Shown: in pieces, positions 2,976 to 58,069 of the stretch
Layout: every line of letters starts with the position of its first letter
Numbering within the stretch: position 1 is the stretch's first letter
Source of the DNA: Prorocentrum cordatum
Lineage: Eukaryota
DNA: 64,000 bases
Reading direction: 5' to 3'
Assembly (NCBI GenBank): GCA_963575745.1
Contig: CAUYUJ010000235.1
Location: 1-64,000, forward strand
The notes under the pieces: generated by a model
The model's database searches: none
Told to the model about the DNA's origin: nothing
The model's input: only the letters and a program-made list of their open reading frames with translations
Translations under genes and position numbers: made by a program

Positions 2976-3429
2976 ACATGCGTCGATGTCGATATCTCTA
3001 TATACATATAGATATGTGTATATATATATATATATATACATCTGGCAAAAGCGTGCCAGCTAGTCCCAGTATCTCTCCACCATCCCTGTCAATGTATATC
3101 ATGCGGTGCACGTGCGTACGTGCGTTGATCTGCGGCGGCGACGCCGTCGCAGATGTTCAAGGATGAACACCCTCCAGGGGTCCAGCTCAGGCCCCAGGAC
3201 CCACAGAAAACCATATACACAAATGGGACTTTCAACATTTTCTGGGGACCTTCGAGAGCAGGGATCGCTCAAGAGTGAAAGGTTCACCCGACGTCAACAG
3301 ACAGAGCCCATGTCGTCAAGGCAAGGCGAGATTTTGAGGTACGCCACCATCCAATAGCTTAGCCGTACTGAGTGTTCTGGTGGGGGTCCCTTGCCCCGAT
3401 GTCTTGCGACAGCGTTCAAAACGCAGTCG

Positions 3430-4640
<1,211 letters not shown>

Positions 4641-6956: not shown

Positions 6957-7132
6957 CAGTCGGGGCGCTGAAGAAGGAACCCTGTTCGTTGGGGAGGGGC
7001 TCGGTGTTCCTTGATTGTTTTACAGTTTGCCTTGGGTTTTGTTCAGGTTTTCAATGGTAAATCGAAGTTTAACTTATGGAAAGAAGGGGCCTTGTTCCTT
7101 CTTCAGGGTTCCTTAGGTCAACGCCCCGACTG
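6957..7132. mobile_element. Tc1-like MITE M3, copy 1
   Basis: TIR cagtcggggcg(c/t)tga...aaggaaccctg. Second copy at 55234-55408. Confidence 0.8.
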
Positions 7133-10037: not shown

Positions 10038-10241
10038 TAATGGAGGATGACGATTGGTAAATGACCGGGGGTCGCGTTCACGCGGCGGCGCCCGGGATGA
10101 CGATAAGAAAAAACCGGCCGCGGGCTGGAAGACTATGTTTTACGTCGCTCTCCTCCAGTCAGAAAATTATGCAGAAATAGCAGAACACTATGTGTTTCAC
10201 CGTTCTCTCCCATTTGTTTGATTAATCGCCACCCCGCGTTA
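10038..10241. mobile_element. MITE family M1, copy 2
   Basis: Colinear with 397-599 over ~200 bp, with different flanks. Confidence 0.8.
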
Positions 10242-10529
10242 TGATGAGAGGGCGGGCTCTTGTGAAGATGACACAGCAACCGAACCCAGCAGCCCGGCGG
10301 CCCCCGCGTGAGACGTGGGCGGGCGGCGTCTGGGCCCGGGCGGCGGCAACCTTTTGGGAGGCGGACGACGCGGCCGCGGCCTGTCACCGCCATGCCTCCT
10401 CCTCCTCCTCCTCCTCCTCCTCCTCCTCCTCCTCCTCCTCCTCCTCCTCCTCCTCCTCGTGCCTTTCCCAAGAGCAGAATGTTCGACCTCCCCGGGGAGG
10501 GGCTCGGGGTGGAGAGGGGGGGGGGGCCT

Positions 10530-15110: not shown

Positions 15111-16055
15111 TATTCCTCTTCTTATATTTTTACAAGCCCGGGCGGGGGGAAAACCCGTCCCCCCCCCAAAAAAAGCCAGACTCCCGGGATCTGGGGCTTT
15201 GGGACCCTTCGGACGGGCCTCGAAGCGGCCTCCCAGGGCTCGCAGGGCGTTTTGCCAAGCCTTCGCAGCACACCTAGGGCGATCAGGGGGGTCATCGGAG
15301 ACGTCCCAGAGAACCCCAAGACAGCACAAGAGCGCTTCAAGAAGCCGTCATACCCCGTAAGATCGCTCCAAAACGTACCAAGAGGCCTCCAAGAGAACCC
15401 CCAAGAGGGCCCCAAGAGGGAATAATCATAGATTTAATGTAGGTTTTTGGTGAATTTCGGGTTCTCCTCTTTTCGTCTTCCGACGCTCCAAGACAGCGGT
15501 CCTCTGGGCGTCCGAAGTCGCCTGGGAGGCTCCAAAATCTCCCCGCAACCATCCGAAAGGGCTTCCAGGCAGTCCAAGAGAGCCCCAGAACGGCACAACA
15601 GGGGTCCAAAATGGCCCTAAGAGAGCCCCATCGCGGCCCAAGATGGCCCCAAGTCACCCTCCGAAGCATTCCAAATCGTGACCGGGGCGATCAGGGAGAC
15701 TGCGGTTAGAGGCAGGTTGGCTTTAGGAAGCCCCAGAGGCCCCCAGAACACGCCCAGGAGGCCTCCAGAAGGCTTTAAGAAAGCGTGAGAACTTTGGTGA
15801 GGCCTCCAGAGGCTCTCCAAGGAGGAGCCTCCGCAAAAAGAGCTGAGGAGGATGGGGAGAATACCCAGGGTATGGCGAGAATGAGGAAAAATAAGCCTGG
15901 AGGAGGGATAACGAACAACATTATTATAACGGCGATGCCAGAAAAGGCAGCAAGGAGTTATCGCAAATTTGTCCGCCTGACCTTCCTGCTATTTCCGCCT
16001 GCATACCAATCTTAGAGGACCAAGGTGCATGGCGCGAAGCACCACTGCAGTCTTG
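15111..16055 (+). mobile_element. Interspersed repeat R1, copy 1 (~950 bp)
   Basis: Starts tattcctctt...tacaagcccggg and ends ggcgcgaagcaccactgcagtcttg, embedded in TA/TATG microsatellite. Copies at 56988-57956 (+) and 47293-48073 (-). Confidence 0.85.
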
Positions 16056-16067
16056 TGTATAAATATG

Positions 16068-16495: not shown

Positions 16496-16663
16496 GAGAG
16501 AGAGAGATATCGGAGTAGGGCCCGGCCGGTGCCGCCATCCTCCATGGGCGCCCCCCGGGACCTTTGGGGGGTCACAGACCCCCCGGGACTGCCCCAGGCC
16601 GCTTCCAAATCGCCCGCGACAGGCCACGCGGGCCGTACAGATGATCAAAAGAGCGCCCCAAGA

Positions 16664-18600
16664 GGGCCCGAGATGGCTTGAAGAAGGCCGACGAGGGCTT
16701 CAAGAGGGCCTTCCAGAGGCAAAAATAGATTCATTCCTTTTGTAGAACGTACGTCTTTAGCATACTCGCTTGCTTCGTCTTCACGGTGCCCCAGACGCCC
16801 CCGAGAGTCCCAACACAGCCCAAGAGAGACTTGAGAGGGCTCAAGACGGCCCAAAAGGGTCGTCCTGTGGGGCTCACGGAGCACCCCGAGACGGCCCAAG
16901 AGGCCCCAAAGCCAGCCCAGGAGGCCCCCAAGATGGCCTCAGGGAGGCCCAAGAGGGCCTCGTTCGACATCATGTTCCCCGAAGCCTCACTGCGAACATG
17001 ACTTCCGGGCTCCCAGGACGCCCAAGAGGCCCACAAGACAGCCTCAGCGAGGCCCCAGAGGGCCCGAGATGGCTTGAAGATGGCCCAAGAGGGCCCCAAG
17101 AGGGCCTTCAAGAGGCAAAAAAAATCCAATTCCCATCATAAAACGTACATTTTCAGCATTATCGCTTGCTTCGTCTTCGCAGCGCCCCAGACGCCCCCGA
17201 GGAGCCCCAACACAGCCCAAGAGAGACCCAAGAGAGCCCCAGACGGCCCGAACGGGTCGTCCTGTGGGGCTCACGGAACCCCCTGAGACGGCCCAAGAGG
17301 CCCCGAAGCCGGCCCAGGAGGCCCCCAAGACGGCCTCAGGGAGGCCCAACAGGGCCTCGTTCGACATCATGTTCCCCGAAGCCTCACTGCGAACATGACT
17401 TCCGGGCTCCCAGGACGCCCAAGAGGCCCACAAGACAGCCTCAGCGAGGCCCCAGAGGGCCTGAGATGGCTTGAAGATGGCCGAAGAGGGCCCCAAGAGG
17501 GCCTTCAAGAGGCAAAAAAAATCTCATTCCCATCATAAGCATTATCGCTTGCTTCGTCTTCGCAGCACCCCAGACGCCCCCGAGGAGCCCCAACACAGCC
17601 CAAGAGAGACCCAAGAGAGCCCCAGGCGGCCCGAACGGGTCGTCCTGTGGGGCTCACGGAACCCCCTGAGACGGCCCAAGAGGCCCCGAAGCCGGCCCAG
17701 GAGGCCCCCAAGACGGCCTCAGGAGGGCCCAAGAGGGCCTCGTTCGACGTCATGTTCCCCGAAGCCCCTCCGGGAACATGATTTCTGGGTTCCCAGGGCG
17801 CCCAAGAGGCCCACAAGACGGCCTCAGCGAGGCCCCAGAGGGCCCGAGATGGCTTGAAGATGGCCCAAGAGGGCCCCAAGAGGGCCTTCATGAGTCACAA
17901 ATTTGCCCATTCCACTCTGATAAAACGCACGTTTGCAGCATACTCGCTTGCTTCGTCTTCGCAGTGCCCCAGACGCCCCCGAGGAGCCCCAACGCAGCCC
18001 AAGAGAGACCCAAGAGGGCCCCAGACGGCCCGAAAGGGTCGTCCTGTGGGGCTCACGGAACCCCCCAAGACGGCCCAAGAGGCCCCGAAGCCGGCCCAGG
18101 AGGCCCCCAAGACGGCCTCAGGGAGGCCCAACAGGGCCTCGTTCGACATCATGTTCCCCGAAGCCTCTCTGGGAACATGATTTCTGGGCTCCCAGGACGC
18201 CCAAGAGGCCCACAAGACAGCCTTAGCGAGGCCCCAGAGGGCCCGAGATGGCTTGAAGATGGCCCAAGAGGGCCCCAAGAGGGCCTTCAAGATGCAAAAG
18301 TCGGCCCATTCCCATCATAAAACGTACATGTTCAGCATACTCGCTTGCTTTGTCTTCGCAGTGCCCCAGACGCCCCCGAGGAGCCCCAAGACAGCCCAAG
18401 AGAGGCCGAAGAGGGCACAAGTCGGCCCACAAGGGTCGTCCTGTGGGGTACACGGAACCCCCCAAAACGGCCCAAGAGGCCCCAAAGCCGGCCCAGCAGG
18501 CCCCCAAGACGGCCTCAGGGAGGCCCAACAGGACCTCGTTCGAAAACATGTTCCCGGAAGCCTCTCCGGGAGCATGATTTCCGGGTTCCCAGGGCGCCTA
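16664..18600 (+). repeat. Tandem array of five ~385-400 bp units
   Basis: gggcc(c/t)gagatggcttgaaga recurs at ~16664, 17060, 17457, 17840 and 18239. Confidence 0.9.
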
Positions 18601-19379
18601 AAGACAGCCCCCAGAGGCCTTGGACACGCCGAAGATGGCCTCAGGACGGCTGACGACGCCGCCAAAACCCCCCAAGAGCGCCTCCAGAGGCCCCTCCAAA
18701 GGGCCCCAGCAGCCGAAAATCACAAAGTTTCCAATGATTTTTGAAGCGTTTTTGCGCTCTCCCATGTTCCGCCTCCCCACGGTCCCGGACCGCGTCAGAG
18801 GCCCTTTAGATCGCTCCAAGACGGCCCAAGAGGCTCCCAAGAAAGCCCAGAGACGGCCCAGGAGAATCCCCAGGTACGTCCAGAGGGCCTCGAGAGCGCC
18901 CCAAGAGAGCCCCAAGAGCGACCCAAGAGGGCCCGAAGAGCGCGTCATTGCAAGGTCTCCGACCTGAGAGGCTCCTATAGGGCGCCCCCGGAGGCCATCA
19001 AGAGACTCCCACGAAGCCCCGTGAGGCTCCCAAGAGGCCCCCTGGAAGCCCCAATGGGCCCCCAAGGGACCCTCAGGGAAGCCCCTTGCGGGCCCCCAAG
19101 ACACCTCGGTCAACCATACCTCCCAGACAGCTTTCCCGGAACATGATTCCTTGGGCTTCCGCCCACCGCCCCAGCCATGTTTCCAATAGGCTTGCCGACA
19201 AGGCCGAAAGGCGCCCCTCGGTAAGCCCCCTCTTAAGAGAGCCGAAAAAATCATGCTCCCAGAAAGCTTCCCGGGAACATGATTCTCTATCTCGGAGTAG
19301 GCCCGGGGGGGGGGGAGGGCGGGCCGCTGCCTGTTCCCCCCATCGGTGCCCACTGGGGGTTGTGGGGGGGGTCCAGAGC

Positions 19380-20270
19380 TCCCGAGAGGGCCCAAGACGG
19401 TCCCAAGAGGCCCCGAAGACGCCCAAGATGCCCTCAAGACAGCCGACGAGGACTCCAATACGCTCCAGGACGGATTCAAGAGGCTCCCCAAGAGGGCCCT
19501 GGAAGGCAATATTAACTCATTTTCCGAGTGTTTTGCATTTTGGCGTTCTCGCTTTTCGCGCTTTCCAGCGCTCTCTCACGGCCTCGGAGGCCCTTCAGAT
19601 CGCTCCAAGAAGGCCCACGAGGCCCCGACGAGGGCCCCAAGACGGCCCAGGAGGCTCCCCAGACAACCCAAGTGTGCCCCAAGAGCGCGCCAAGAGAAGG
19701 CCCAGAGGGGCCCCGAGGCGGCCCGGGCCCGCCCCGAAGCAGGCCACGACAGGCAAATGGAGGTCCCGAGAGGGCCTTAGACGGTCCCAAGAGGCCCCGA
19801 AGACGCCCAATCTGCCCTCAAGACGGCCGACGAGGACTCCAACACGCTCCAGGACGGACTCTAGAGGCTCCCCAAGAGGGCCCTGGGAGGCAGGATTCGC
19901 TCGTTTTCCGATTGTTTTTGCATTTTGGCGTTCTCGCTTTTCGCGCTTCCCAGCGCTCTCTCACGGCCTCGGAGGCCCTTCAGATCGCTCCAAGAAGGCC
20001 CACGAGGCCCCGACAAGGGCCCCAAGACGGCCCAGGAGGCTCCCCAGACAACCCAAGTGTGCCCCAAGAGCGCGCCAAGAGAAGGCCCAGAGGGGCCCCG
20101 AGGCGGCCCGGGCCCGCCCCGAAGCAGGCCACGACAGGCAAATGGAGGTCCCGAGAGGGCCTTAGACGGTCCCAAGAGGCCCCGAAGACGCCCAAGCTGC
20201 CCTCAAGACGAGGACTCCAACACGCTCCAGGACAGACTCAAGAGGCTCCCCAAGAGGGCCCTGGGAGGCA
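19380..20270 (+). repeat. Tandem duplication, ~385 bp unit (~2.3 copies)
   Basis: 19530-19890 and 19915-20270 are nearly identical. Confidence 0.85.
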
Positions 20271-20956
20271 AGATTCACTAATTTTCCAATGGTTTTTGAA
20301 GGATTTAGGCGTTCTCGCTTTCCCCGCTTCCGATCGCTCCAAGACGGGCCACGAAGCCCCGAAGAGGGCCCCAAGACGGCCCAAGAGGCTCCCCAAACAA
20401 CCCAACTGTGCCCCAAGAGCTCCCCAAGAGGGGGCCCAGAAGGGGACCGCCAACCGATATTTCGATGTCTCTGGCCCTAGAGGCCGCCTGTAGGCCCCCG
20501 GAAGCCACCAAGAGGCTCCCACGAAGCCCCGTGAGGCGCCCAAGAGGCCCCCAGGAAGCCCCAAGAGCCCCCCAACGGACTCCCAGGGAACGCCCAAGAG
20601 GCCCCCCAACACACCCCAAGAAATCATGTCCCCAGAAAACCTTCCGGGGACATGGTTCATCATGGGCCCGAGAGTTCCCGGAGGCCCCCAAGGGGCCCCC
20701 AGGGAACGCCCAAGAGACCCCCCAACACACCCCAACAAACCATGTCCCCAGAAAGCCTTCCGGGGACATGGTTCATCATGGACCCGCGAGTCTCCAGAGG
20801 CTTCGAAGTACCATCATGCTACAGGAGAGCTGTCTGGGAAGTTGATTGGGAACACGACTGATCGCCTTCTCGCGGCCCTCCGCAGATCGTTTCGCACAAA
20901 GTTGCCCAAAGTGCCCTCTTGAACCGACGACGACAACGACGAATCGGCGAAAACGA

Positions 20957-22202: not shown

Positions 22203-23192
22203 TATTCCTTTTCCCTATCAAATGATGAGGGGCCCCCCCCCGGATGGGCGTCACCTAATTCGCCACCCCCCCGGACGGGCTCAAGAGAACCCCGAGAATG
22301 CTTGAAATTACCGCCAAGCTGGTCCGACGGGCCCCAGAAGCCTTCCAAGACGCCCACAGATCGCTCTAAGATGCCCCAGTTGGTCACAAAACGGCCCAAG
22401 AGGCCTCCAAGACGCCCCACACGGCCCCAAGACGGCCCAAGACGGCCCAAGACGGTGCAAGAGACTCCCAAGACGGCCCCAGAGACCCTCAAGACGGCTC
22501 CAAGAAAGGCTCCACGACAGGATCCGACCCGACATTTCGGCCCCTCGGCTCCAGGATACCCCCCAGAAGGCTCGAACACAGCCCCAGGAGGCCCCCAAGA
22601 GGCCCTAACAGGCCCCCAGGACGTCCGCGAGAAGCCATCCCACGACCCACGACAGCCCCTCGATGCCGCCGTGCCCGGAGGGCGCCAGACGCCCCCCATC
22701 CGGGCCCGAAAAAGAACAAGCAACCGTCGACGTGAACCAAAAATTGGTGCGGCCCGTCGGGTGCTCCGCGCCCCAGGACATGCTCTTTCCTAACGAAAAC
22801 CCACACCCACGACAGCCCCTCGATGCCGCCGTGCCCGGAGGGCGCCAGACGCCCCCCATCCCGGGCCCGAAAAAGAACAAGCAACCGTCGACGTGAACCA
22901 AAAATTGGTGCGGCCCGTCGGGTGGTTCCCCGGGCACGAAAAAGAAAAACCAACCGTCGACGTGAACCAAAAATTGGTGCCGCACGTCGGGTGGTTCCGC
23001 GCCCCGGGACATGCTCATTCCTTAGGAAAACCCACACCCACGACAGCCCCTCGACGCCAGCGTGCCCAGAGGGCGCCAGACGCCCCCCATCCCGAGCACG
23101 AAAAAGAACAAGCAACCGTCAGCGTGAACCAAAAATTGGTGCGGCCCGTCGGGTGGCTCTGCGTCCGCGCACATGCTCATTCCTTACGAAAA

Positions 23193-23239
<47 letters not shown>

Positions 23240-23598
23240 GCACGCACGCACGAACGCACGCACACGACGGCCCCTCGGCGCCAGCGTGCCCGCAGAGCGC
23301 CAGACGCTCCCATCCGGGGCCCCGAAGAAAAAAAACAGCCGTCGACGTGCTCCACAAATTGGTTCGGCCCGTCGGGTGGTTCTTCACTTCGAAACATGTT
23401 CACTCCTTACGAAAACACACACCCACGCAGCCCTGAGCCGTCGAGCTCGCGACAAACATCACGTTTACACCCATATGGCAATGAAAGTTCACGAGCTCGC
23501 CACATTCTGTGACCACATAGCGCGGCGAGATCCCAGAATCGCGCTCCTGCGCCAAGGATGAGGATGAGGGCGAAGCGAAGCGAGCCAACAATATCTTG
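22203..23598 (+). mobile_element. Interspersed repeat with R1-like termini and internal ~160-230 bp tandem units
   Basis: Starts tattcctttt and ends gcgaagcgaagc...atcttg before (TA)n. The internal unit acgacagcccctcga...aaccgtcgacgtgaaccaaaaattggtgcggcccgtcggg recurs at ~22649, 22809, 23040 and 23265. Confidence 0.65.
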
Positions 23599-23852
23599 TG
23601 TATATATCTATATATATATATATATATACATATATATATACACATGTATGTAGGTGTATATATATATATATATATATATAATTCCCCAAACAGGTGCTTG
23701 CACCTAGGGGGATTTACTTGGTCTAGCCGGCTTTTCGCCCCCGAGCCGCCCCGTGCCGCCCCCGTGCCGCCCCGTGCCGCCCCCGTGCCTCTCCGTGCCG
23801 CCCCCGTGCCGCCCCGTGCCGCCCGTCCCGCCCGTGCCGTTGGCCATGGCCG

Positions 23853-24548
<696 letters not shown>

Positions 24549-27426: not shown

Positions 27427-27630
27427 TGTGGTTCGGTTTGCCTATGGGGCCAGCGCGTAGTTCAGGAGATCCAGTGAAATCTAAGGAATTTCGGATTCCA
27501 TCTGCAACGGAGTTCAGGATGAGAGAGAGACTTTCGATAGTTCGGGGGCCCGCCCGTAGCCCATCGTGCTCAAAAAAGACAGAAATTGCAGCGGAGCTGG
27601 ATTAGATCCAGCCCCCAGCGCCGCACGCGA
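27427..27630 (+). repeat. 5' LTR of the copia element
   Basis: ctatggggccagcgcgtagttcaggaga...aacggagttcaggatgagaga...cgcccgtagcccatcgtg aligns colinearly with 34218-34345, with many substitutions. End uncertain (~27590-27630). Confidence 0.8.
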
Positions 27631-27956
27631 CCCACGCGCGCCCGCGCATGCGCGATAGCCACCAGAGGGCGGACAGGAACGGAGCGGCGGATAACGACAA
27701 GAGCTCCAAGAATTGCCGGATACGGATTGGGGCGGAGGGCGCCTGATAGAGAAAGCGGCCCGCATCAGCCGCTTGAAAGGACATCGGCACCAGCTCGGAA
27801 ACGAATCGAATTACGAAAGGAACCAGAGCAGAGAAGAACGTCTCGGTCAGAGAGATGGCGCTCAACCAAGGCACGTCCGACCAGACGCGCGACGCGGCGC
27901 AGCAGGCGCAGCAATCTATCGGGGAACAACAACGACAGGGCGCATAACGACAACAC

Positions 27957-28900
27957 ATGCAGCTAGCTGGCGCGCCTGAGCTCACCAGGAAGCTCGGAGA
28001 GGCAGCGGGGAAATTAGCGGCGCCAGCGCCCATGCCGACGGCGCCGCAGCTGATCCAAGCGAAGGACACTGGCAAGTCACAGGCCTTCAAGAACGAAGAT
28101 TCGAAGTTCAGCGAGTTGCTGCAGAAGCTCGACAGCTATGTGCCCAGCGTTCGGGGTGAACGCCCGACCAGCGATCGAATTGGCCGCTGACTAGGCCAAC
28201 GATTCGGTGACGATCACCACCGCGGCGGCGGCGGCGCAGTCCATAGACGTCGCGGACCATGGGCGGGGGAAGCCGGCGAGGTGGACGAGAAGCTCTCGCA
28301 GCCCTATGCGGCGTTCATTTCGCCCATGGAAGGCGAGTCGTTCGAATTAGTGGTAAGTGCCGGCCGAGGCAATGGAGCAGGGGCCCTGCGTCTGCTGGCG
28401 CGATTCTGGGACCCCACAAGCGGCGGTCGCCGCCGAGTGCTGCTCACGAAGATCATGGCGCCCAGCCAGGTCGCGAAGCTTGAGAACTTGGCCGGAGATA
28501 TCGCGAAGTGGGAAGAGCTGATCAGGCGCCGCGAGAGGCGACGAGCCGACGGGCGAGACGCACGCCTCGACGATGAGGTCTAGATGAGTGCGCTCGAGAG
28601 TCTCGCGCCGCAACCGGACCCGATTCCAGGACTATCCGTCCATGCGTGACCAGGTCAGCAGTTTCTTAGAGACTCGACGAGCCCAAGGGGCCCTCGGTCG
28701 AGCTCGGGGGGGCCCGATGGAAGTCGACGCGCTCGCGAGGGGCGGCGAAGGGCGAGACGGCGAAGGCAAGGGCAAGGACAACAATGGCAACGGCAGAGGT
28801 ACGACGAACGACCCGAGCTCAACGTGCAGAAATTGCGGGAAGAAAGGTCACCGAGCTGCTAACTGTTGGAAGCCGAAAGACAAGGGACCGAGCAAATCTA
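27957..28900 (+). pseudogene. gag: gag remnant with CCHC zinc knuckle
   Basis: Fragments GNGAGALRLLARFWDP, DIAKWEELIRR and GPMEVDAL, plus CRNCGKKGHRAANC (CX2CX4HX4C, 28825-28866). Split by stops and frameshifts. Confidence 0.85.
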
Positions 28901-29129
28901 ACGGCCAAGAACTACGGCGAGGGCGCGATGGGCCGAGCACGCCAACAGATCGGCCTTCGCCGATGCAACCCCCGCAACCTCGGGGGCGAGGCGCAGAGCA
29001 CCGCCAGCGCGCAGTTGCCCGCCTCGGCCCCGCAGGCCGGCAGGTGCAACCAGTCGGCTGCCATTCTGGGCTTCGACGCCTTCGAGCGCGTCCTCGACCA
29101 GAACAGCGCAGAGGCGAAGGACGCGAAGC

Positions 29130-29560
29130 ACCACCGCGAGAACATTACTATGACCGACGACACCAGCGCCGCGGCGACAGCCTTCCCGTTCGCGCGGGAG
29201 GGCGAGCGCAGCGAGCCCGACGGCAGCTCCCACCGAGCGGGCACGGGCGAGATTGTAGAGGACGAGGGCGGCATCGACACCATCGGAATGTCGGGGCGCG
29301 ACGAGCGCGTGCTCCTGATGGGCAGGCGCGCGAGCACCGGGGGGCCGCTCCTGTCTGCCTCGGCTATTGCCACGAAAAGCCACTTCACCAAGATCGGCGC
29401 CTTCGGTGGCCACATCCTGAAGGACAGCGAGTTCGCCGAGGGGATCCACCAGGTGATCGACCATTACGTGGCCGAGGAGAATGAGGGCATCGCGCCGCTG
29501 CACCTGCAGGGCGGCGTCTACAAGATGGACGCGCTGGTAGACGTTCCGAAGCCGGCTGCC
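29130..29560 (+). pseudogene. Retropepsin-like aspartic protease remnant
   Basis: ITMTDDTSAAATAFP (D at 29159; DTG degenerated to DTS), followed by AGTGEIVEDEG, PLLSASAI and GGVYKMD, in the expected position after gag. Confidence 0.7.
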
Positions 29561-29789
29561 TCGTCGGAGTTAGCGGCGGCCGACCTCTGCCCTTGGGCGC
29601 CGTCGAGCGCGGGCCCTCGCAGCTGCCGGGCGCGCCTCCGCTGGGGCCGACCGCGAGACCGACGGCGGCAGCTGCGGGGGGCCGAGATCCCGCCCCCCGA
29701 GAAGCTGAAGACGGCCAAGGGATCAGGGGTGACGAAGACTACGACGGCCGCCCCGAGGAAGTTGCGCCGGCAAAGGTTCAGGGGCGCAC

Positions 29790-30880
29790 GAAACCACCGA
29801 CACGGGCCGAGGTGGGTCAACGCGAAGCTCCGGGCCGCGCCGCGTTCAGAGATCGGCGCGAAGTTTGCCGCGCCGCCAGAGGACTCGGACAACCGCGCGA
29901 GCTACAAGCTGGACCGCGTGAAAGCGCAGACCCCGTCACGGCCATCGACTTGACATTCGCGGGCGAGAAGACCCGCGGTGGGGGCGAGGACCAGGGGGGC
30001 ATTTTCCCGATGCGAGTGGCCAGAGATACCGAGGCGAAATTGCCCCACTCGTCTGCTATTCCACGCGAGAAGGTCAGTAATTGCCTGATCGAGATCCTGA
30101 TGGGCTTCATCCGGCACCTCGGCAAACGCGGGCCCATCTTCCAGATTGACGGGGAGCCCGCGATCGCGGCTCTCAAGGCGGCGGTTGCGGCGGCGGCTTC
30201 GACGGCGTAGTTCCCGCCGCGAGAATCGCCAGCAGGAGAACGCCAAAGCCATGGAGGCATCGAAGGTGAGGCGCGAGAAGTCAGGGCGAACAGGTGCGCG
30301 CTGGAGGCCAAGCTCGGCAAGAAGGTGGATGGCGCGCATTGGAGTGGCTGCCGCGGCGCGCCGCAGCCCGTTTCGGCCGGCACCGACGCGAAACGAACGT
30401 CTCACTGGAGAGCGGCGGCGCCCAGGCAGCGACTGGACAAAGTTGGAGGCGCAGGTCGGCGAGCGGGCGATGCGCGGGCCGCTCGCGCCAGGAGGTCACA
30501 GGAGCACCATGCAGGAGCGCATGATGTCTGGGAACTTCTTGGGCTACCACACGCGGACGGTGGCCCTGCTCGCCGCGGCGGTCGACGGCGCGGAGAAGGC
30601 CCACGGTTTCGCGACGTTGCCGAAGGAGCGGGCCTGGGACGACAAGGGCTGGGGCGCTCTTCGAGGAGTTCCCTGGGCCACCCGCCCAGGAGAGGAGGCG
30701 CCCACCCAGGCGCGCGCGCCGGCGGCGGCTACCGCGAGGATGGAGCCGCGAGCTCCGCGAGCAAGGTGCATCCTGCGCCGCGACGCTGCGAAGTGCGGAG
30801 CCACTTCAGGTTTCCCCGAGCGTCTGGATTCGACGCAGAATGAAAGTTTCTCAGCGCGGAGTGCCGCGACAGGATCGCGG
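29790..30880 (+). pseudogene. Copia integrase remnant (HHCC + DDE)
   Basis: Degenerate HHCC finger QREAPGRAAFRDRREVC (29818-29868); D in AIDLTF (29947); D in QIDGEPAI (30148); E in QSHGGIE (30262), in frame 38 codons later across a TAG at 30208; downstream GNFLGY motif. Confidence 0.85.
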
Positions 30881-31494
30881 AGCTGAGGATGGGCGGCCCT
30901 GGGGTTAGGGCGCGAGTTACCGAGCGCCACTTTCGAGCAGAGGAAAAACCGGTGCCTGGCCGAGGTGCTCGAGATCAACCGGCAGCTGGAGACGGAGGCC
31001 AGGCCCCCGCCCCAAAGCCGAAGGGCGCCGCGATAGCAGCAGCGCCTGCCGGAGGCGGCGGAAGCAGCCCGAGCGCTGGCAAGAAGCGCCGAGTTGTCGC
31101 ATCCGATCCTGGGCGAGCCACCCGGGCATGAGGAGATGCGCCGGGAAGGACAGCGCCCGGAGTTGCAGAGACCCGCCTCGTACTTCAGCGAGGGACACCC
31201 ATCGAGGAGACGCAGATGCACGCGGAGGACCTGGTCGACGCGCCCATGCCCCAGGCATCGCCAGCGAGCGCGGCATCTGCGTCGGCGTCGTTTGCGAGAC
31301 CGAGCTCGACACAAGGCAGACCAATGGATGCGGATCTGCTGGAGAAGATCAACGGCTACGACAAGGGCGGCACGTTTGCCGAGATTTACCGTTTGGTGAC
31401 ATTTGAGATGCGTTCGTACGCCAACATCAACAGCATCGATCAGTACCCAGAGCAGGCTGAGGAGATCGCGTCGCCGCGTACCGAGATGTGTGCC

Positions 31495-32165
31495 GTAGAC
31501 ATCGCGCGGATAAGCTCGCCGAGGAAGTTTGCCGAGATGGCGCCAAGGTACGGCCTCGCGCACAGCCTGGCGGTGGACATCGAGACTGGTCGGGATCTAC
31601 GACTACCTGAGCAACGCAAGGAGTGCAATAATCATCTGAGAGAGGAAGACCCACTGCTCGCGATCACTAGCCCGCCGCGCACGCCATTCACCAGACTGCG
31701 CAAGTTCTCGGACTGGAAGCGCGATCCGAATATCGTGGAGGCAGAAGTCCTGGAGGGCGAAACACACCTCAACTTTAACATGGAGGCCTGCAAAGAGCGC
31801 CACAAGGCAGGATGGTTATTTTGTCACGAGGCACATTGGTCAGCGAGCAGCTGGTACCGCCCCGCCAGAGCGTTCAGGAAGTTATGCAGTTGGCAAATGT
31901 GTTCTGAGTCCATGGACCTATGTGCCGCTGGCAAATGCAGGCGATTGGTGCCGACGGGAAGCCGGGCTTCCTTCGGAAGGAGACCGGGTGGCTCACCAAC
32001 AGTGAGCTGCTCGCAAGATCCTCGAGGGCTACTGCGAGTTTCCCGGAGGTCCGAACGGAGCACGACCTCGCCATGTTCACTTGGTCGACCGACGCGCAAG
32101 ACACGCGCGGCGGGATCCTCCCAACTTGGTGGCGGCCATATTGAAAGGCCTGAGAGAGAAGCTTC
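31495..32165 (+). pseudogene. C5 cytosine DNA methyltransferase-like domain inside pol
   Basis: Ordered motifs: VDIARISSPR (motif I-like), AVDIETGRDL, PLLAITSPPRTPF (motif IV SPPC; Cys codon now CGC at 31678), WLFCHEAHWSASSW (motif VI-like E at 31828), MCRW...RKETGWLTNS (motif VIII region, after a frameshift), PPNLVAAILKGL (motif X-like). Assignment is by motif recognition only. Confidence 0.65.
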
Positions 32166-32254
32166 GACGACGCGAAGGCCACACCACCCCGGCAACGCTT
32201 TGTGAGAGACCCCATCCACGCGAGGAGTGCACAGAGGTGCTCGCTGAGTACCAG

Positions 32255-33220
32255 GACGATTACTTCTTGACGATCTCACGGGCGACGTTCTCCACTCCGA
32301 GGGCGCGCAAGCTGCGAGGCAGGAAGAACTGGGGCGGTGCCGCGGAAGGCAGATATGGCAGAAGGTACCCAAGCGAGGCATGCTCATGAAAGGCAAGAAC
32401 GCAGCGACCCTACAGTGGATCGAGACGAACAAGGGCGAACGGACTCAACCACGATGTCGTTCGAGGCTGGTTGCGAGGGAGATCAAGTAGGCGGTGAGGT
32501 CAGAAGATCGACCGGATCAAGCTGAGCTGGTCTCGGCCGTACCCCCGATAGATGCGTTCAAGGCAATGGGGGCGCGTGAACAACGCCGACCATGATGGCG
32601 ACGCCGAGGTGGTCATTTACAAGTTGTGTGACATTTCGAGGGCGCATTTCTATTGCGAGGTCAACCGCGAGGTGTACGAGGAGCTACCCGAGGAGGAGAC
32701 CCACGACGATCCCGAGATGATGGTGGGCAAGCTACTCAAGACGTTACGCGGCACAGTAGATGCCAGCCACGTTTGGCAACACGACTACATAGGCTTGACA
32801 AGTTCACATGGTTTCCAGAAAAGCATTTCGGACCCTGCGCTATTCTACCATGCCGAGCGCCACGTGCAAGCGGAGGTCCACGGCGACGACTCCGGCGCGA
32901 TAACGAAGAAGTCCTAGGGGAGTGGTTCGACGATGTGCTGCCTCGCTACGGATTCAAGGTCACGGGTAGCCCGAGCAGCAAGCCGCTGAAGGAGCAGAGC
33001 GTGGCGCGCCTCAACCGGGCGCTGGCCTGGGGCCCTTTTCGAGCGTTCGGCATGCTTCGAGGCGGACACCTGGCACGCGAAGAAGGCGGTCAGGGACCTG
33101 GGGCTGGAGAACGCCGAAGCTGGGCGACGAGGAGACCAAGACCTACCGCGGCATGACCATGAGGAATATGCACCTGAGTATGGACAGACCCGACAGCAGC
33201 TACAGCGCGAGCATGCAGGC
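32255..33220 (+). pseudogene. Copia reverse transcriptase remnant
   Basis: WIETNKG (32416), RSRLVAREIK, CDISRAHFY, LLKTLRGTVDASHVWQ, DPALFYH, VHGDD (~32876-32890). Stops and frameshifts present. Confidence 0.92.
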
Positions 33221-33324
33221 CAGACACACGAAGGAGCCGAAGGATACCAATGTAGAAGACCTGAAGCGCATCGTCCGCCTCTTGAGAAGTACCCCGCAGG
33301 AAGGGTGCTGTTTCCACGAAGCCG

Positions 33325-34084
33325 CTGTCCATTGCGACAGCGACTACGAGGGCGGCCCGATTGCGAGACGTTCTCGAAGCGGAATGTCGATATTATGGGG
33401 ATCGCATTTGCTGAAACGCAGCGGCACGGCCCAATCCACGGTGAGTTTGAGCAGCGGCGAAGCCGAGTAAGACACGAAGGAGCCGAAGGATACCAATGTG
33501 GAAGACCTGAAGCGCATCGTCCGCTTCTTGAAGAAGTACCCCGCAGGAGGGGTGCTGTTTCCCGCGCAGACGCCGCCGACGAAGGCGCTGTCCACTGCGA
33601 CAGCGACTACGCGGGCGGCCCGATTGCGCGACGTTCTCGATGCGGAATGTCAATATTATGGGGATCACATTTGCTGAAACGTGGCGGCGCGGCCCAATCC
33701 ACGGTGAGTTTGAACAGTGGCGAAGCCGAGTACCATGCACTATTGCGCGGAGCCTGCCACGATTGTGGAGCGCAGGCGACGCTGGCCGACCTCAGGGTCG
33801 AGGTAGACTACGAGATTGAGCTTTACATGTTCAGCGACAGCTCAGCCGCAAGAGGAATTGCATGCCGGCAGGGACTGGGAGCTGTACGACACCTGGGCGT
33901 TCGATTATTTTGGTTCCAAGATCGAATCCAGAGCAAGAGGCCGACGCTGAAGACGGCCGCAGGGCACTGGATCCCCGCGGACCTGTTCACCAAGGCCCTC
34001 GATCAGGACGCGATAGAGCGGCTGCTGAATCTGATCTGGTTCATGATGAAGACCAGCGGCAGCGACAGGCACCGCAGACAGTGA
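33325..34084 (+). pseudogene. Copia RNase H remnant, partly duplicated
   Basis: CDSDYAGGPIARRSRCG, QSTVSLNSGEAEYHA, SDSSAARGIACRQGLGAVRHL, PADLFTKAL. A ~250 bp tandem duplication spans 33226-33469 / 33473-33732. Confidence 0.92.
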
Positions 34085-34194
34085 TGACGCCGGCTGTTTG
34101 CCGGCGAGGTCTCGTGGAAAAGATCGAGCCGCTGACCTCCTTGGCTGTCGCCCTCCGCCTCCGCCCAGTCGCGGCGCCAAAGGCCGAGGAGGGG

Positions 34195-34393
34195 TGTTAT
34201 GTTTTTTTTTTGTTTTTCTAGGGGGCGGCGCGCAGTTCAGGAGAGTATTGCAACTTGACGGAGTTTCGGATTTGATCTAGAACGGAGTTTAGGATGAGAG
34301 AAAAACTTTGGATATTTCGGAGCTCCGCCCGTAGTCCATCGTGTTCCAAATGGGCAAGAATTTTTAGATTTGTCAACCCCCGCTGCGACCAAC
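34195..34393 (+). repeat. 3' LTR of the copia element
   Basis: Starts TG directly after the purine tract at 34186-34194. ctagggggcggcgcgcagttcaggaga...aacggagtttaggatgagaga...cgcccgtagtccatcgtg matches the 5' LTR. Confidence 0.8.
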
Positions 34394-36027: not shown

Positions 36028-37101
36028 GGGGGAGGAACGGCGGAGGAGCGCAAAGCAGGTGGGGGGGGGAGACAGACGGCGGCAGACGAGGGGAGGAGGG
36101 CCCTCCTCACGCTACGCGGCTGCGCCTCCCTTGGTGCGCCGCCGCCCCTGCGGCACGCCAGCGGCACGCGGCGGAGCGGAGGGACGGGCAGGGAAGGGCG
36201 AGGCGGGGCCCGCAGAAGAGGGCGGCTGGTGGAGGCGGCGGCGGGCGAGGGCGCGTGCGGGGAGGCCAGGGGGGCGAAGAAGCCGGAGGGCTCTCGAGCT
36301 GTGACTGCGCGGTCAATGTCTTGCCAGGCTTTTTGGGACGTGTGTGGGGTGTCTTCCAGGTGCGGGCCGCGTCGGCGGCGGAGAGCGCGGCAGGTGTGCG
36401 TGTGTGAACGTGTGTGTGTGTGTGTGGATTTGTGGTGTGTGTTGTGTGCTGTGTGTGCTGTGTGTGTTGTGTGTGTTGTGTGTTGTGTGTGTGTTGTGTG
36501 TGTGTTGTGTGTGGTTTGTGCTGTGTGTGCTGTATGTTGTGTGTTGTGTGTTGTGTGATCTGTGGTGCTGGTGTGTGTTTGCCTTTTCCGCCGGAGCAGT
36601 CGCCCTCTGCTCAGACGCAAACAGTGTGTGTGTGTGTGTGTCTGTGTGTCTATGTGTCTTTGTGTGTGTGCCTGTGTCTGTGTCTGTGTGCACGCGCGCC
36701 TGTCTACGGCAAGCCTTGCGACCGAACATGTGCGCGGAATGGCGTGGCACCGACCCTGCTCTCAGCGCTCGCCCGCTCTCGCGCCTGCTCTCGTGCGCCG
36801 GTGCGGCTCCTCGGCGCCTCTGTGCTTGTTCTGTTGCCAGATGTTCGACCTCATGGGCAACGCCGCCTCGAGTTTCCGCGTCGCCGTGTCCCAGAAGGGC
36901 GGATCCAAAGCTTCGCAGGAGCTGGAGGTTCCGTGATTGCAGTCCGCGGGTGCAGTGTGTGTGGTTCGCCGGCTGCCGCGCGTGATTGTCGAAGCACGTT
37001 GTCGTTGTTGCGGTCGGCCGCCTGCCCGCAGTTCCATTGTTGACAGCGTGTTTCAGATTGTTTTGTTGAGAGGCCGACATGCGTTATAGATGGGAGATAT
37101 A

Positions 37102-37279
37102 CTCCAGAGTTCGTAATAAAAGGGAGGGGGTCTGGACCCTCCAAGACAAGCCATTTCAGACCTCCCCCGTGGGAGAACCCTCCAAACCATCGTCCCCAGA
37201 CCCCCCAGGCCCTCCAAGATAGCCTGGAAGAGACCCCCCCAGAAATGAGACCCCCCTCCCTTTATTACGAAATCTGGAG
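37102..37279. mobile_element. Stowaway/Tc1-mariner-like MITE M2, copy 2
   Basis: TA-CTCCAG...CTGGAG-TA. The interior is the reverse complement of 1245-1425. Confidence 0.85.
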
Positions 37280-46466: not shown

Positions 46467-47292
46467 TAGTGGCCTTCGGCCCATCCCACCACTGTGCTTG
46501 TGTTGTGGGTTAGAGGCCTCGGTGGGAGGCCTCTCGGGGGGTTCTCGGAGGCAGCTTTGAGGCATATTGGGGGCCTCTTGGGGCATCTTGTTAGGCCTCT
46601 TGGGGGGCCTCTAGAGGGCCTCTTGAGCTCTCTTAGGGTTAGGGGCCAATTTGGGCCTCCTGGGGGCCTATTGGGGCGGAAGGCTCGAATTGTCGGTTCG
46701 TGTTCCCCCTCTTGGGGCCCTCTTGGGCGATCTTGGGCGCCTTTTAAGCCGTCTTGGGGCCCTCTTGGACCGTCTTGGGGCCCGCTTGGGAGCCTCTTGG
46801 GCCGCCTTGGGGCGGTCTTGGAGGCCTCTGGGGTCATCTTGGAGCGTCGGAAGCCCGAGAACGCGAAAAGCATGGAAAACCACATGGAAGCTCAATGATG
46901 TTTGCTTGTTGGGGCCCTGTTGGGGGTCCTCTTGGGGCGCTCTTGGGGCTTCCTTAGAGGCCTCTGGGGCCGTCGTGGGGCCACCTTGGGCGTCTTGGAG
47001 TGCTCTTGGGTTGCCTTGGAGGCATCTTGGGGCCCCTTGGGAGGTTTCTGGGGCCCTCTTGGCCCGTCTGGGGCCCTCCGGCCTTTGGAAAGTCACACGG
47101 GGCAGCCGAGAAACGCGTGGGATCGCCCAGGAAATCTGAGGATCGGGGGCCCCAGCGCCCTTGGAGTGGTATCATCCCCCAGTGCTGGAGCACAGAGAAC
47201 AGAGAACACATGAGAGTTCGGGGGGTAACTCCACTTCGTGACTCGAAGCACCGTGGCGGATACACACATGCATGTGTGTATATAGATATATA

Positions 47293-48073
47293 CAAGACTG
47301 CAGTGGCGCTTCGCGCCATGCACCTTGGTCCTTGAAGATTGGTATGCAGGCGGAAATGGCAGGAAGGTCAAGCGGACAATTTTGCGATAACTCCTTGTTG
47401 CCTTTGCTGGCATCCCCGTTATAATAATGTTGTTCGTGCTCCCTTCTCCATGCTTATTTTTCTTCATTTCTTGCGGAGGCTCCTCCTTGGAGGGCCCCTG
47501 GGGGCCTCACCAAAGTTCTCGGGCTTCCTTAAAGCCTTCTGGAGGCCTCCTGGGCGTGTTCTGGGGGCCTCTGGGGCTTCCTAAGGCCAACCTGCCTCTA
47601 ACCGCAGTCTCCCTGAACGCCCCGGTCACGATTTGGAATGCTTCGGAGGGTGTCTTGGGGCCATCTTGGGCCGCCATGGGGCTCTCTTAGGGCCATTTTG
47701 GATCCCTGGTGTGCCGTTATGGGGCTCTCTTGGACTGCCTGGAAGCCCTTTCGGATGGTTGCGGGGCGATTCTGGAGCCTCCCAGGCGACTTCGGACGCC
47801 CAGAAGACCGCTGTCTTGGAGCGTCTGGAAGCCGAAAAGAGGAGAACCCGAAATTCACCAAAAACCTACATTAAGTTTATGATTATTCTCTCTAGGGGCC
47901 TTCTTGGGGGTGCTCTTGGAGGCGTCTTGGTACGTTTTAGAGCGATCTTTCGGGGTATGACGGCTTCTTGGAGCGCTTTTGTGCGGTCTTGGGGTTCTCT
48001 GGGACGTCTCCGATGACCCTCCTGATCGCCCTAGGTGTGATGCGAAGGCTTGACAAAACGCCCCGCGAGGCCC
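47293..48073 (-). mobile_element. Interspersed repeat R1, copy 3 (5'-truncated, inverted)
   Basis: Reverse complement of ~15235-16055. Confidence 0.85.
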
Positions 48074-55233: not shown

Positions 55234-55408
55234 CGTTCGGGGCCCTGAAGAAGGAACCCTTCTCGTTGGAGAGGGGCTCGGCGTTCCTTGATTGTTGTGC
55301 AGTTTGCCTCAGGTTCCCTTATGTTTTCGATGGGAAATCGAAGGTTCACTTATGGAAAAAAGGGGCCTCGTTCCTTGTTTACGGTTCCTTAGGTCAACGC
55401 CCCGACTG
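55234..55408. mobile_element. Tc1-like MITE M3, copy 2
   Basis: Colinear with 6957-7132 and flanked by TA on both sides. Confidence 0.8.
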
Positions 55409-56987: not shown

Positions 56988-57956
56988 TATTCCTCTTCCT
57001 ATATGTTTACAAGCCCGGGCGGGGGGAAAACCCCTCATCCCCCCCAAAACAAAAAAAACGGACTCCCGGGATCTGGGGCTTTGGGACCCTCTGGACGGGC
57101 CTCGAAGCGGCCCCCCCGGGCCTCGCAGGGCGTTCTGCCAAGCCTTCCCAGCACACCCAGGGCGATCAGGGGGGTCATCGGAGACATCCCAGAGACCCCC
57201 AAGACAGGACAAGAGCGCTCCAAGAGTGACCGACGTGACCTCAAGATGGCCCAAGAGGCCTCCAGGACGGCCCCAAAGAGACCACCAAGAGCAGAGCACT
57301 CCCAAGAAGGCCCCAAGAGGCACAAACCATTGATTTTCTGTTGGTTTTTGGTGAATTCTGGGGTTCTCCTCTTCTCGGTTTCCCGACGCCCCAAGACGGC
57401 GGTTTTCTGGGCGTCCGAAGCCGCCTGGGAGGCTCCAAAATCGCTCCACAACCATCCGAAAGGGCTTCCAGGCAGTCCAAGAGAGCCCCAAAACGGCACA
57501 ACACGGGTCCAAGATGGCCCTCAGAGAGCCCCATGGCGGCCCGAGATGGCCCCAAGACACCCTCCGAAGCATTCCAAATCGTGACCCGGTCGTTCAGGGA
57601 GAGCGGTTGGAGGCAGGATGGCCCGAGGAAGCCCCCAGAGGCCCCCAGAATACGCCCAGCAGGCCTCCAGAAGGCCTTAAGAAAGCCTGAAACAACTTTT
57701 GTGAGGCCCCCAGAGGCTCTCCAAGGAGGAGCCTCCGCAAAAAAGAGCTGAGGAGGGGGAGAATGCGCAGGTTATGGCGAAAATGAATAAAAAGAAGCAT
57801 GGAGGAAGGATAATGAAGAACATTATTATAGCGGCGATGCCGGAAAAGGCAACAAGGAGTTATCGCTAAATTGTCGGCTCGACCTTCCTGCTATTCCGCC
57901 TGCACACCAAACTTCAAGGACCAAGGTGCATGGCGCGAAGCGCCACTGCAGTCTTG
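56988..57956 (+). mobile_element. Interspersed repeat R1, copy 2
   Basis: End-to-end colinear with 15111-16055. Confidence 0.85.
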
Positions 57957-58069
57957 TGTATATATATATGTATATATATATATATGTATATGTCTGTGTA
58001 TATGTATGTATATATATACATACATACGCCGAACTCCGAGCATTGTACGAGGATTTTTGATGGATTTCC

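Follow-up and report, generated by a model that had tools for sequence, protein, structure and literature searches.

When selection no longer holds a protein-coding gene, in which direction do its bases drift? Almost every mutation spectrum that has been measured favours A/T, and methylated CpG is usually lost quickly. The question is raised in the opposite sense by a stretch of 64,000 nucleotides from the dinoflagellate Prorocentrum cordatum (GenBank assembly GCA_963575745.1, contig CAUYUJ010000235.1, positions 1 to 64,000 of the forward strand; hereafter the window), in which roughly 27.9-34.1 kb of the + strand is, to judge by its domain order and broken frames, an old, dead Ty1/copia-like retrotransposon. 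An initial annotation had noticed that conserved residues of this element are repeatedly replaced by arginine (Arg) codons one transition away, and had proposed that its decay proceeds by gain of CpG (TpG>CpG and CpA>CpG). The direction of decay is real, but the CpG specificity is not: A/T>G/C transitions outrun the reverse in the copia-like family (odds ratio, OR, 2.5-5.7) and do so at A/T sites in general. The observation holds in part, and the interpretation has partial support.

All six of the Arg codons originally cited are present: CGC at 29821, CGC at 29836, CGG at 29854 and CGC at 29857 in the zinc finger of the integrase, and CGG at 31591 and CGC at 31678 in a domain with the fold of a DNA methyltransferase (DNMT). 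The residues expected in the zinc finger (His, His, Trp and Cys) were borne out by a motif search of 166 relatives, in which 16 proteins representing five lineages (P0003, P0011, P0015, P0063 and P0068) matched: all five lineages read H..H..YR.WC..C...H against R..R..FR.RR..C...R in the window, the Arg codons at 29821, 29836, 29854, 29857 and 29896 standing for His, His, Trp, Cys and His. For the DNMT-fold domain, columns were counted in the best 150 of 729 HMMER matches. Cys is found at the 31678 position in 141 of 148 of these sequences (R in 4), as expected; Trp is the majority residue at 31591, with W in 87 of 145 (K in 17, F in 10). Within this domain the window carries Trp>Arg at 31591 and SPPC>SPPR at 31678, and changes in the opposite direction occur too (Gly>Ser at 31564, CGG>CAG, and Arg>Trp at 31813).

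Some of these replacements are private to the window and some are not. They were compared with five P. cordatum copies (P0001 and P0167-P0170), aligned to the window by tblastn and filtered on local identity; P0002 (32% identical) and P0151 (same cluster as P0001) were excluded. The change at 31591 is private, with W in five of five copies and T in four of four paralogous contigs, as is that at 29837 in the second His codon, where four of four copies have A (inferred from frame-2 peptides). At 29822, in the first His codon, G is common to the window, P0167 and P0169, with A in P0170, and the downstream His>Arg change (the 29896 codon) is common to the window and P0001. The comparison omits 29854 and 29857, whose first bases are unreadable in the other copies. 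The gene models of P0001, P0167, P0169 and P0170 read 29780-29960 in frame 2, outside the integrase frame, so that these "proteins" are gene models imposed on decayed copies; even so, the frame-2 peptides allow some copy bases to be inferred. The Cys>Arg change of the catalytic motif at 31678 recurs: besides the window, two of four P. cordatum copies have it (P0001 and P0168, with C kept in P0167 and P0169), as do four of 148 family members, with Tyr in none. This recurrent Arg would reflect either a repeated TGY>CGY change or the spread of an inactive sublineage.

Arg as such is not enriched: it accounts for 12-13 of 79 replaced conserved residues, and base composition (GC and CpG) is estimated to give about 12% CGN. 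What is enriched is the direction of single steps. Because Arg codons can show only T>C and A>G, the count was extended to every change, at sites where a conserved residue fixes the ancestral base (W denoting A/T and S denoting G/C), using a profile of 15 collinear relatives picked from 42 proteins of at least 700 amino acids. At columns conserved at 75%, the window has transitions at 21 of 195 A/T sites (3 of 32 where the change creates CpG, 18 of 163 elsewhere) and at 8 of 279 G/C sites (p=6.6e-4); at 90% conservation the counts are 2/22 for CpG-creating sites, 10/92 for other A/T sites and 4/169 for G/C sites. All five P. cordatum copies have moved in the same direction relative to deep conservation. 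The 32 conserved Arg columns tell of the reverse path: 18 are still CGN and 10 are AGR, with none TGN or CAN, and at a 60% threshold 4 of 28 CGN-type columns now read TGG, CAC or CAG. The effect is restricted neither to CpG nor to Arg codons but concerns A/T sites in general, the selected Arg codons being the part of a genuine excess of A/T>G/C transitions that catches the eye.

The copies themselves give a second polarised spectrum, from a sample of one window and six copies in which effect sizes are rough. Among changes found in only one of six lineages (singletons), W>S transitions affect 67 of 1838 sites and S>W transitions 31 of 2060 (OR 2.48, p=2e-5). The excess is symmetric between the strands (A>G 42/1144, or 0.037; T>C 25/694, or 0.036; p=1.0) and confined to transitions, with singleton transversions unbiased (W>S 13/1838 vs S>W 14/2060) and a second polarised transversion count giving 7 vs 8. 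Four of the copies form one tight clade (the X clade, 85-89% amino-acid identity), and the changes were therefore recounted with the window, P0001 and the X clade as three lineages. W>S and S>W transitions then number 20/200 and 9/238 on the P0001 branch, 26/1143 and 5/1223 on the terminal branches of the X clade (p=7e-5), 9/200 and 5/238 on the branch of the window (p=0.18), and 6/200 and 8/238 on the stem of the X clade.

The link to CpG that the initial annotation had drawn does not survive these counts. Singleton transitions fall on T in all four contexts (TA 12/205, TC 23/711, TG 23/571, TT 9/351), and T followed by G changes no faster than other T (p=0.59). The deeply conserved columns agree: in the window the difference between CpG-creating and other A/T sites at 75% conservation has p=1.0, and in the five P. 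cordatum copies, summed, 9 of 101 CpG-creating and 64 of 706 other A/T sites have changed. Mispairing of 5-hydroxymethyluracil (5hmU), offered as one mechanism, also fits these contexts poorly, because in Crypthecodinium cohnii 5hmU is reported to favour TA and TC (PMC11572971), TpG not being singled out, whereas here T changes in all four contexts. The broader claim, that the element departs from the usual C>T, CpG-losing pattern of decay, stands on the polarised transitions and on the behaviour of CpG, which lacks clear hypermutability. Singleton transitions at C number 8/350 in CA, 3/665 in CC, 12/649 in CG and 8/396 in CT, CG being no faster than other C (19/1411, p=0.44); pooled over the data sets, CpG has changed at 20 of 1167 sites and other C at 43 of 3397 (OR 1.36, confidence interval, CI, 0.80-2.32). 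The bias thus has a direction, a size, strand symmetry and independence of context, and goes with no strong hypermutability of CpG.

Repeats elsewhere in the window served as controls. The initial annotation had drawn on them too, citing the right terminal inverted repeat (TIR) of a miniature inverted-repeat transposable element (MITE) at 10038-10242 and two TA flanks that read TG. The TIR does hold three derived A/T>G/C transitions, but only one of the three makes a CpG. As for the flanks, TG at 1243 contrasts with TA at the opposite end and in the sister copy, but 6955 is ambiguous (left TG, right GA). These flanks belong to MITE-like pairs with TIRs and 87-89% identity (1245-1427 with 37100-37279 on the - strand, and 6960-7132 with 55237-55408), the copy at 1245 being flanked by TG (left) and TA (right) and the copy at 6960 by TG and GA. 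The control set proper comprised four repeat families with 16 copies, polarised by majority rule. With all copies included, CpG>TpG/CpA changes number 15/709 and TpG/CpA>CpG changes 16/631, with 48/2736 for other C>T and 52/1604 for other T>C. In a reduced set, from which four long, outgroup-like copies had been removed, W>S transitions number 29/1607 and S>W transitions 32/2504 (OR 1.42, CI 0.86-2.36), and gains of CpG (9/457) nearly balance losses (8/518). A symmetric polarised spectrum is what the initial annotation had named as contrary to its claim, and outside the copia-like family CpG gain and loss are near-symmetric. Such balanced counts are as expected of sequence at compositional equilibrium near 58-60% GC.

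A low-coverage sequencing run (X1) provided a further comparison, as it yielded pieces at least 99% alike to the window together with many paralogous pieces. Of three runs compared, X1 alone contained part of the stretch (share of words 0.12); X2 gave no matching piece and X3 gave 10 short ones. Polarisation was based on 21 positions with at least two unanimous paralogous contigs, among 40 listed of 568 differing places; 19 positions with a single contig were left out as unpolarised. At these 21 positions W>S and S>W transitions number 8 and 7, with 3 CpG gains and 5 losses in the window. Summarised pairwise, the differences from contigs have C/G in the window against T/A at 181 and the reverse at 169 (p=0.56), a count that does not discriminate between the hypotheses, as symmetry would result from any process that is stationary or shared. 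One paralogous contig at 30477-30703 (depth 12.9) differs from the window at 33 of 227 bases; in 15 of the 19 single-contig positions, between 30552 and 30617, the window mostly has CpG and that contig TpG or CpA, differences that are unpolarised and could be gain or loss.

The account of these data that we think somewhat better than an even bet is that dead coding sequence drifts towards an equilibrium composition rich in GC and tolerant of CpG, without being directed at CpG. Once selection stops, codons would drift to the genome's neutral base composition, which would be GC-rich and free of a CpG penalty, and the driver would be that, per site, A>G and T>C transitions exceed G>A and C>T, whichever the strand and the dinucleotide context. 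In a working gene, codon positions 1 and 2 are kept near 53% GC (2060 of 3898 sites), and a dead gene would therefore gain G/C. Because CGN lies one transition from CAY (His), TGY (Cys), TGG (Trp) and CAR (Gln), these codons turn into Arg, and CpG would accumulate as a by-product of His, Cys and Trp codons becoming CGN. Biased G:T repair and GC-biased conversion are possible sources of such a bias, neither being limited to CpG. The former is the source that we favour, though at well under even odds: mismatches of G:T or G:hmU would be repaired towards G:C (base excision of the MBD4 type), whether they arose as replication errors, as deaminated 5-methylcytosine (5mC) or in heteroduplexes. Repair in that direction would explain both a bias limited to transitions and the survival of CpG, and orthologues of MBD4, UNG and NTH1 are present in dinoflagellate transcriptomes and genomes (PMC6680887).

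Several observations weigh against relaxation towards equilibrium as the full account. The X-clade stem is unbiased, and the window's own branch is not significant. The bases of the copies were inferred from predicted proteins, not read from DNA, and changes that create stop codons, all of them S>W, are invisible in such proteins, so that the copy branches look more biased than they are. Against deep conservation, the bias is smaller at the looser 60% threshold (other A/T 36/268 and CpG-creating 6/43 vs G/C 37/441). The bias in the non-copia repeats is weaker than that in the copia-like family, with heterogeneity at p=0.012 for the terminal X-clade branches, 0.034 for the deeply conserved columns and 0.09-0.10 for pooled data, so one genome-wide process may not be the whole story. 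The changes are also uneven along the element: between 29.7 and 30.4 kb the window has G/C where the X clade has A/T in a ratio of 37:13, against 167:129 elsewhere (p=0.02), and both this bin and the zinc-finger cluster, in which five of six CpG-creating sites have changed, exceed what a uniform process predicts. Lastly, unpolarised transversions between the window and the X clade lean the same way (53:35, p=0.07), which fits GC-biased conversion better than a repair bias limited to transitions.

These points lend some weight to GC-biased gene conversion, whether between alleles at a local recombination hotspot or ectopically from copy to copy, which would favour W>S changes and cluster in the 5' half of the element; we regard it as unlikely, though the foremost of the rivals. 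Regional heterogeneity speaks for it: summed over bins and unpolarised, the window has G/C against A/T in the X clade at 99:49 over 28.9-31.3 kb and at 81:70 over 31.3-34.1 kb, and GC is 0.65-0.72 in the 5' half of the element vs 0.56-0.63 in the 3' half. The zinc-finger cluster and the lean of unpolarised transversions point the same way, and clusters of this kind are what biased clustered substitution typically yields in mammals. Yet both polarised transversion counts are unbiased, and the DNA on either side of the element is not rich in GC (0.556 and 0.56). A process that converts TpG/CpA specifically to CpG in repeats, as first proposed, is very improbable. It can draw on the six codons, which are real, on the recurrence of Arg in place of the catalytic Cys, on the zinc finger and on an excess of CpG gains over losses, which among singletons is 23 vs 12 (per-site OR 2.2, p=0.026). 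But the same comparison on structured family branches, 21 vs 12, is not significant (p=0.16), and the five of six changed sites in the zinc finger, which have P=0.0016 at a per-site probability of 0.2, are a post hoc case because that cluster itself prompted the claim. CpG-creating sites change no faster than others in any of the three counts above, gains do not prevail over losses at the contig-polarised sites, in the other repeats they are nearly matched, and two of the three cited TIR changes create no CpG.

A process aimed at transposons or repeats, by DNA adenine deamination or a T>C change linked to 5hmU, could drive A/T>G/C without regard to CpG, and it would account for a bias stronger in the copia-like family than in other repeats, limited to transitions among polarised singletons and clustered at 29.7-30.4 kb. 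T>C is fastest at TpA, with 12/205 (0.059) against 55/1633 (0.034) elsewhere (p=0.077), and TpA is depleted in the element (observed/expected ratio, o/e, 0.48-0.53 over 28500-34100, 0.83 in the left flank). There are partial precedents: 5hmU is enriched in repeats of Amphidinium carterae (PMC11572971), and foreign DNA in the chlorarachniophyte Bigelowiella natans shows near-exclusive A>G/T>C change, with RT (reverse transcriptase) and DDE domains enriched among TpA-depleted genes (10.64898/2026.01.13.699255). The spectrum here is mixed, however, with 31 of 98 polarised transitions being G/C>A/T, and only 12 of the 67 W>S transitions lie at TpA. The heterogeneity tests are borderline and compare different kinds of sites (former codon positions 1 and 2 with non-coding repeats), the copia ratio is inflated by the invisible stop-creating changes, and TpA depletion is strong in the right flank too (o/e 0.54). 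We accordingly rate a targeted process as a poor prospect. A bolder form of it, a dinoflagellate counterpart of repeat-induced point mutation (RIP) running in reverse on transposon copies, through adenine deamination or 5hmU, with clustered A>G/T>C changes, catalytic residues turned to Arg and CpG protected, seems to us improbable as well; the stronger copia bias, the clusters in the zinc finger and at 29.7-30.4 kb, the depletion of TpA and the peak of T>C at TpA would be its traces.

Apart from its decay, the element is of interest for the domain that holds two of the cited codons. The label "DNMT-like" given to it holds at the level of fold but finds no sequence match in Pfam or the PDB. The AlphaFold model of one relative, P0005, has a predicted local distance difference test (pLDDT) score of 90.7, and with it Foldseek returned 27 matches at E<=1e-3 with template modelling (TM) scores of 0.33-0.49, all of those listed being DNMT1, DNMT3, Dnmt2, DIM2 or similar. 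The family, with 729 HMMER matches (E<=1e-3, among 1.84 billion representative sequences), has the consensus ..VD..E.YSPPR..GL.pG.A.DL.TGWD...P.LL.GSPPCT.FS...HL.F...Q..GR.FLHEHP..A.SW..D.C..G., and the domain is seen in the window, in P0005, in P0015 (residues ~600-800) and in P0063. The family keeps a Pro-Cys catalytic motif (SPPC), which we take to be motif IV of the C5 methyltransferases and in which the window copy has Arg. No glycine-rich motif I, which binds S-adenosylmethionine (SAM), appears in the consensus, E.YSPPR standing at the expected place. No Pfam family covers the domain in the open reading frame (ORF) of the window or in 12 relatives; a sequence-profile search of the PDB found no methyltransferase, only a chance match at E=0.47; the Atlas gave PF00145 only as a lead (score 0.85); and a word-index search with the DNMT-fold ORF among proteins of similar length gave no match. 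Retrotransposon-borne DNMTs are described in Symbiodinium (SymbioLINE-Dnmt and SymbioDIRS-Dnmt3), whose Copia is stated to be one that "lacks any DNMT domain" (de Mendoza et al. 2018, PMC5890265). Given that statement, the copia-borne domain may be an unreported, highly divergent retrotransposon DNMT. It resembles the Symbiodinium cases in being a cytosine-methyltransferase fold inside a dinoflagellate retrotransposon polyprotein, and differs in that its carrier is copia-like, that it has neither a Pfam match nor motif I, and that the window copy is dead.

The features of the element and of the control repeats are given in the table. The order of parts is that of a Ty1/copia element: a gag with a CCHC knuckle, an integrase 5' of an RVT_2 RT, and then RNase H, with matches to the Pfam families zf-CCHC and RVT_2. 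The element is collinear with P0015 and P0063 over gag, zinc finger, integrase core, RT and RNase H, and RVT_2 is also carried by the relatives P0011 and P0015. Its reading frame switches at least nine times, the integrase core holds an in-frame stop at 30208 (E>stop), and the Pfam match to RVT_2 in ORF 32552-32917 (E=4.1e-4) is weak, under the curated cut-off. The nearest proteins are unnamed P. cordatum products, 58-68% identical to the broken translation. A word-index search with the integrase ORF among longer proteins gave no match, and two metagenome scans, one with the window ORF and one with P0015, detected no relative. The direct repeat of about 140 bp that flanks the element is possibly a remnant of its long terminal repeats (LTRs), or else an unrelated short repeat. 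Against a window of eukaryote-like DNA with a GC content of 0.58, the element has GC 0.637 and CpG o/e 1.14, and its flanks GC 0.57-0.58 and CpG o/e 0.82-0.91. The RNase H region contains a tandem duplication of about 245 bp (33226-33469 and 33472-33732, 88% identity by self-BLAST), and one paralogous contig skips 33246-33521. Tandem repeats are dense in the window at 3350-4620, 16657-18691, 19376-20444, 22639-23433 and 23700-24500, and include arrays of ~384 bp and ~160 bp as well as long runs of (GTA)n and tracts of (TG)n, (TGCG)n and (TGTC)n.

Table. Positions in the window of the parts of the copia-like element and of the repeats used for comparison.
Feature	Position	Strand	Basis or remark
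Left copy of the ~140-bp direct repeat flanking the element	27436..27575	+	Self-BLAST, 78% identity to right copy; alignment
Gag-like region of the decayed copia-like element	27858..28930	+	Gag parts of P0167/P0170 align from 27858/27888
CCHC zinc knuckle in gag	28822-28866	+	Pfam zf-CCHC, E=2.2e-4, in ORF 28588-29484
Remnant of integrase N-terminal HHCC zinc finger	29785..29900	+	tblastn against P0015 and P0063; motif in 5 lineages
Integrase core remnants, two frames	29986..31081	+	hmmsearch with 15-relative profile: 29986-30339, 30395-31081
Remnant of DNMT-fold domain, between integrase and RT	31480..32021	+	729 HMMER matches; column profile; AlphaFold/Foldseek of relative P0005
Reverse transcriptase remnant (RVT_2), two frames	32260..32917	+	Profile matches 32266-32571, 32615-32917
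RNase H region with internal tandem duplication	33063..34081	+	Profile matches 33063-33467, 33477-33602, 33578-34081
Right copy of the ~140-bp direct repeat flanking the element	34212..34350	+	Self-BLAST; alignment
MITE copy, sister at 397-600	10038..10242	+	Alignment; right TIR polarised by three other TIRs
Dispersed three-copy control family	15236-16061 (+), 57113-57975, 47287-48072 (-)		
397-bp satellite control	16657-18691		5 copies, 82-95% identity
Tandem repeat controls	19376-20444; 22639-23433		

The window offers a small polarised sample in which dead dinoflagellate coding DNA moves the opposite way to the usual spectrum and CpG survives. Were the same true of the whole genome, it would be relevant to why dinoflagellate genomes are rich in GC, to how CpG is retained under heavy CG methylation (a property taken from Symbiodinium and assumed for Prorocentrum cordatum), and to whether 5hmU or mismatch repair shapes base composition. 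For annotators, it means that Arg-rich, CpG-rich "ORFs" in such genomes can be the remains of transposon genes. The copia-borne DNMT-fold domain may outweigh the decay in importance.

Among known systems, the nearest in kind is GC-biased substitution, including GC-biased gene conversion, which acts on neutral DNA, dead transposons included. The locus shares with it a net W>S excess in neutral sequence, local clustering (at 29.7-30.4 kb) and a composition heading to a GC content above that of constrained codon positions; it differs in that the polarised bias is in transitions only. A literature search found no report of a polarised repeat spectrum or of GC-biased conversion in dinoflagellate repeats, and no paper on CpG depletion in Symbiodinium. 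Deamination of 5mC and fungal RIP likewise concern context-related decay of repeats, here in a lineage with heavy CG methylation going by the figure for Symbiodinium DNA (PMC5890265), but the direction is opposite: CpG>TpG/CpA is not clearly raised over other C changes in the element. Hyperediting of retroelement RNA by ADAR would also give clusters of A>G in a retroelement. In the element, A>G and T>C are equal per site on the sense strand, which rules out ADAR-type editing, and the zinc-finger cluster mixes both within 80 bases.

A parallel in direction comes from integrated viral DNA of B. natans, in which A/T>G/C changes make up 230 of 231 mutations, all of them at TpA (10.64898/2026.01.13.699255). 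The two cases are alike in that A>G and T>C changes run against the usual AT-biased spectrum, that mobile or foreign DNA is affected, and that TpA is depleted. They are unlike in degree and context, with 67 of 98 transitions here being A/T>G/C, 12 of those 67 at TpA, and the process being known here from comparison of sequences. B. natans belongs to another lineage of SAR (stramenopiles, alveolates and Rhizaria), and a reverse RIP in dinoflagellates would parallel its hypermutation.

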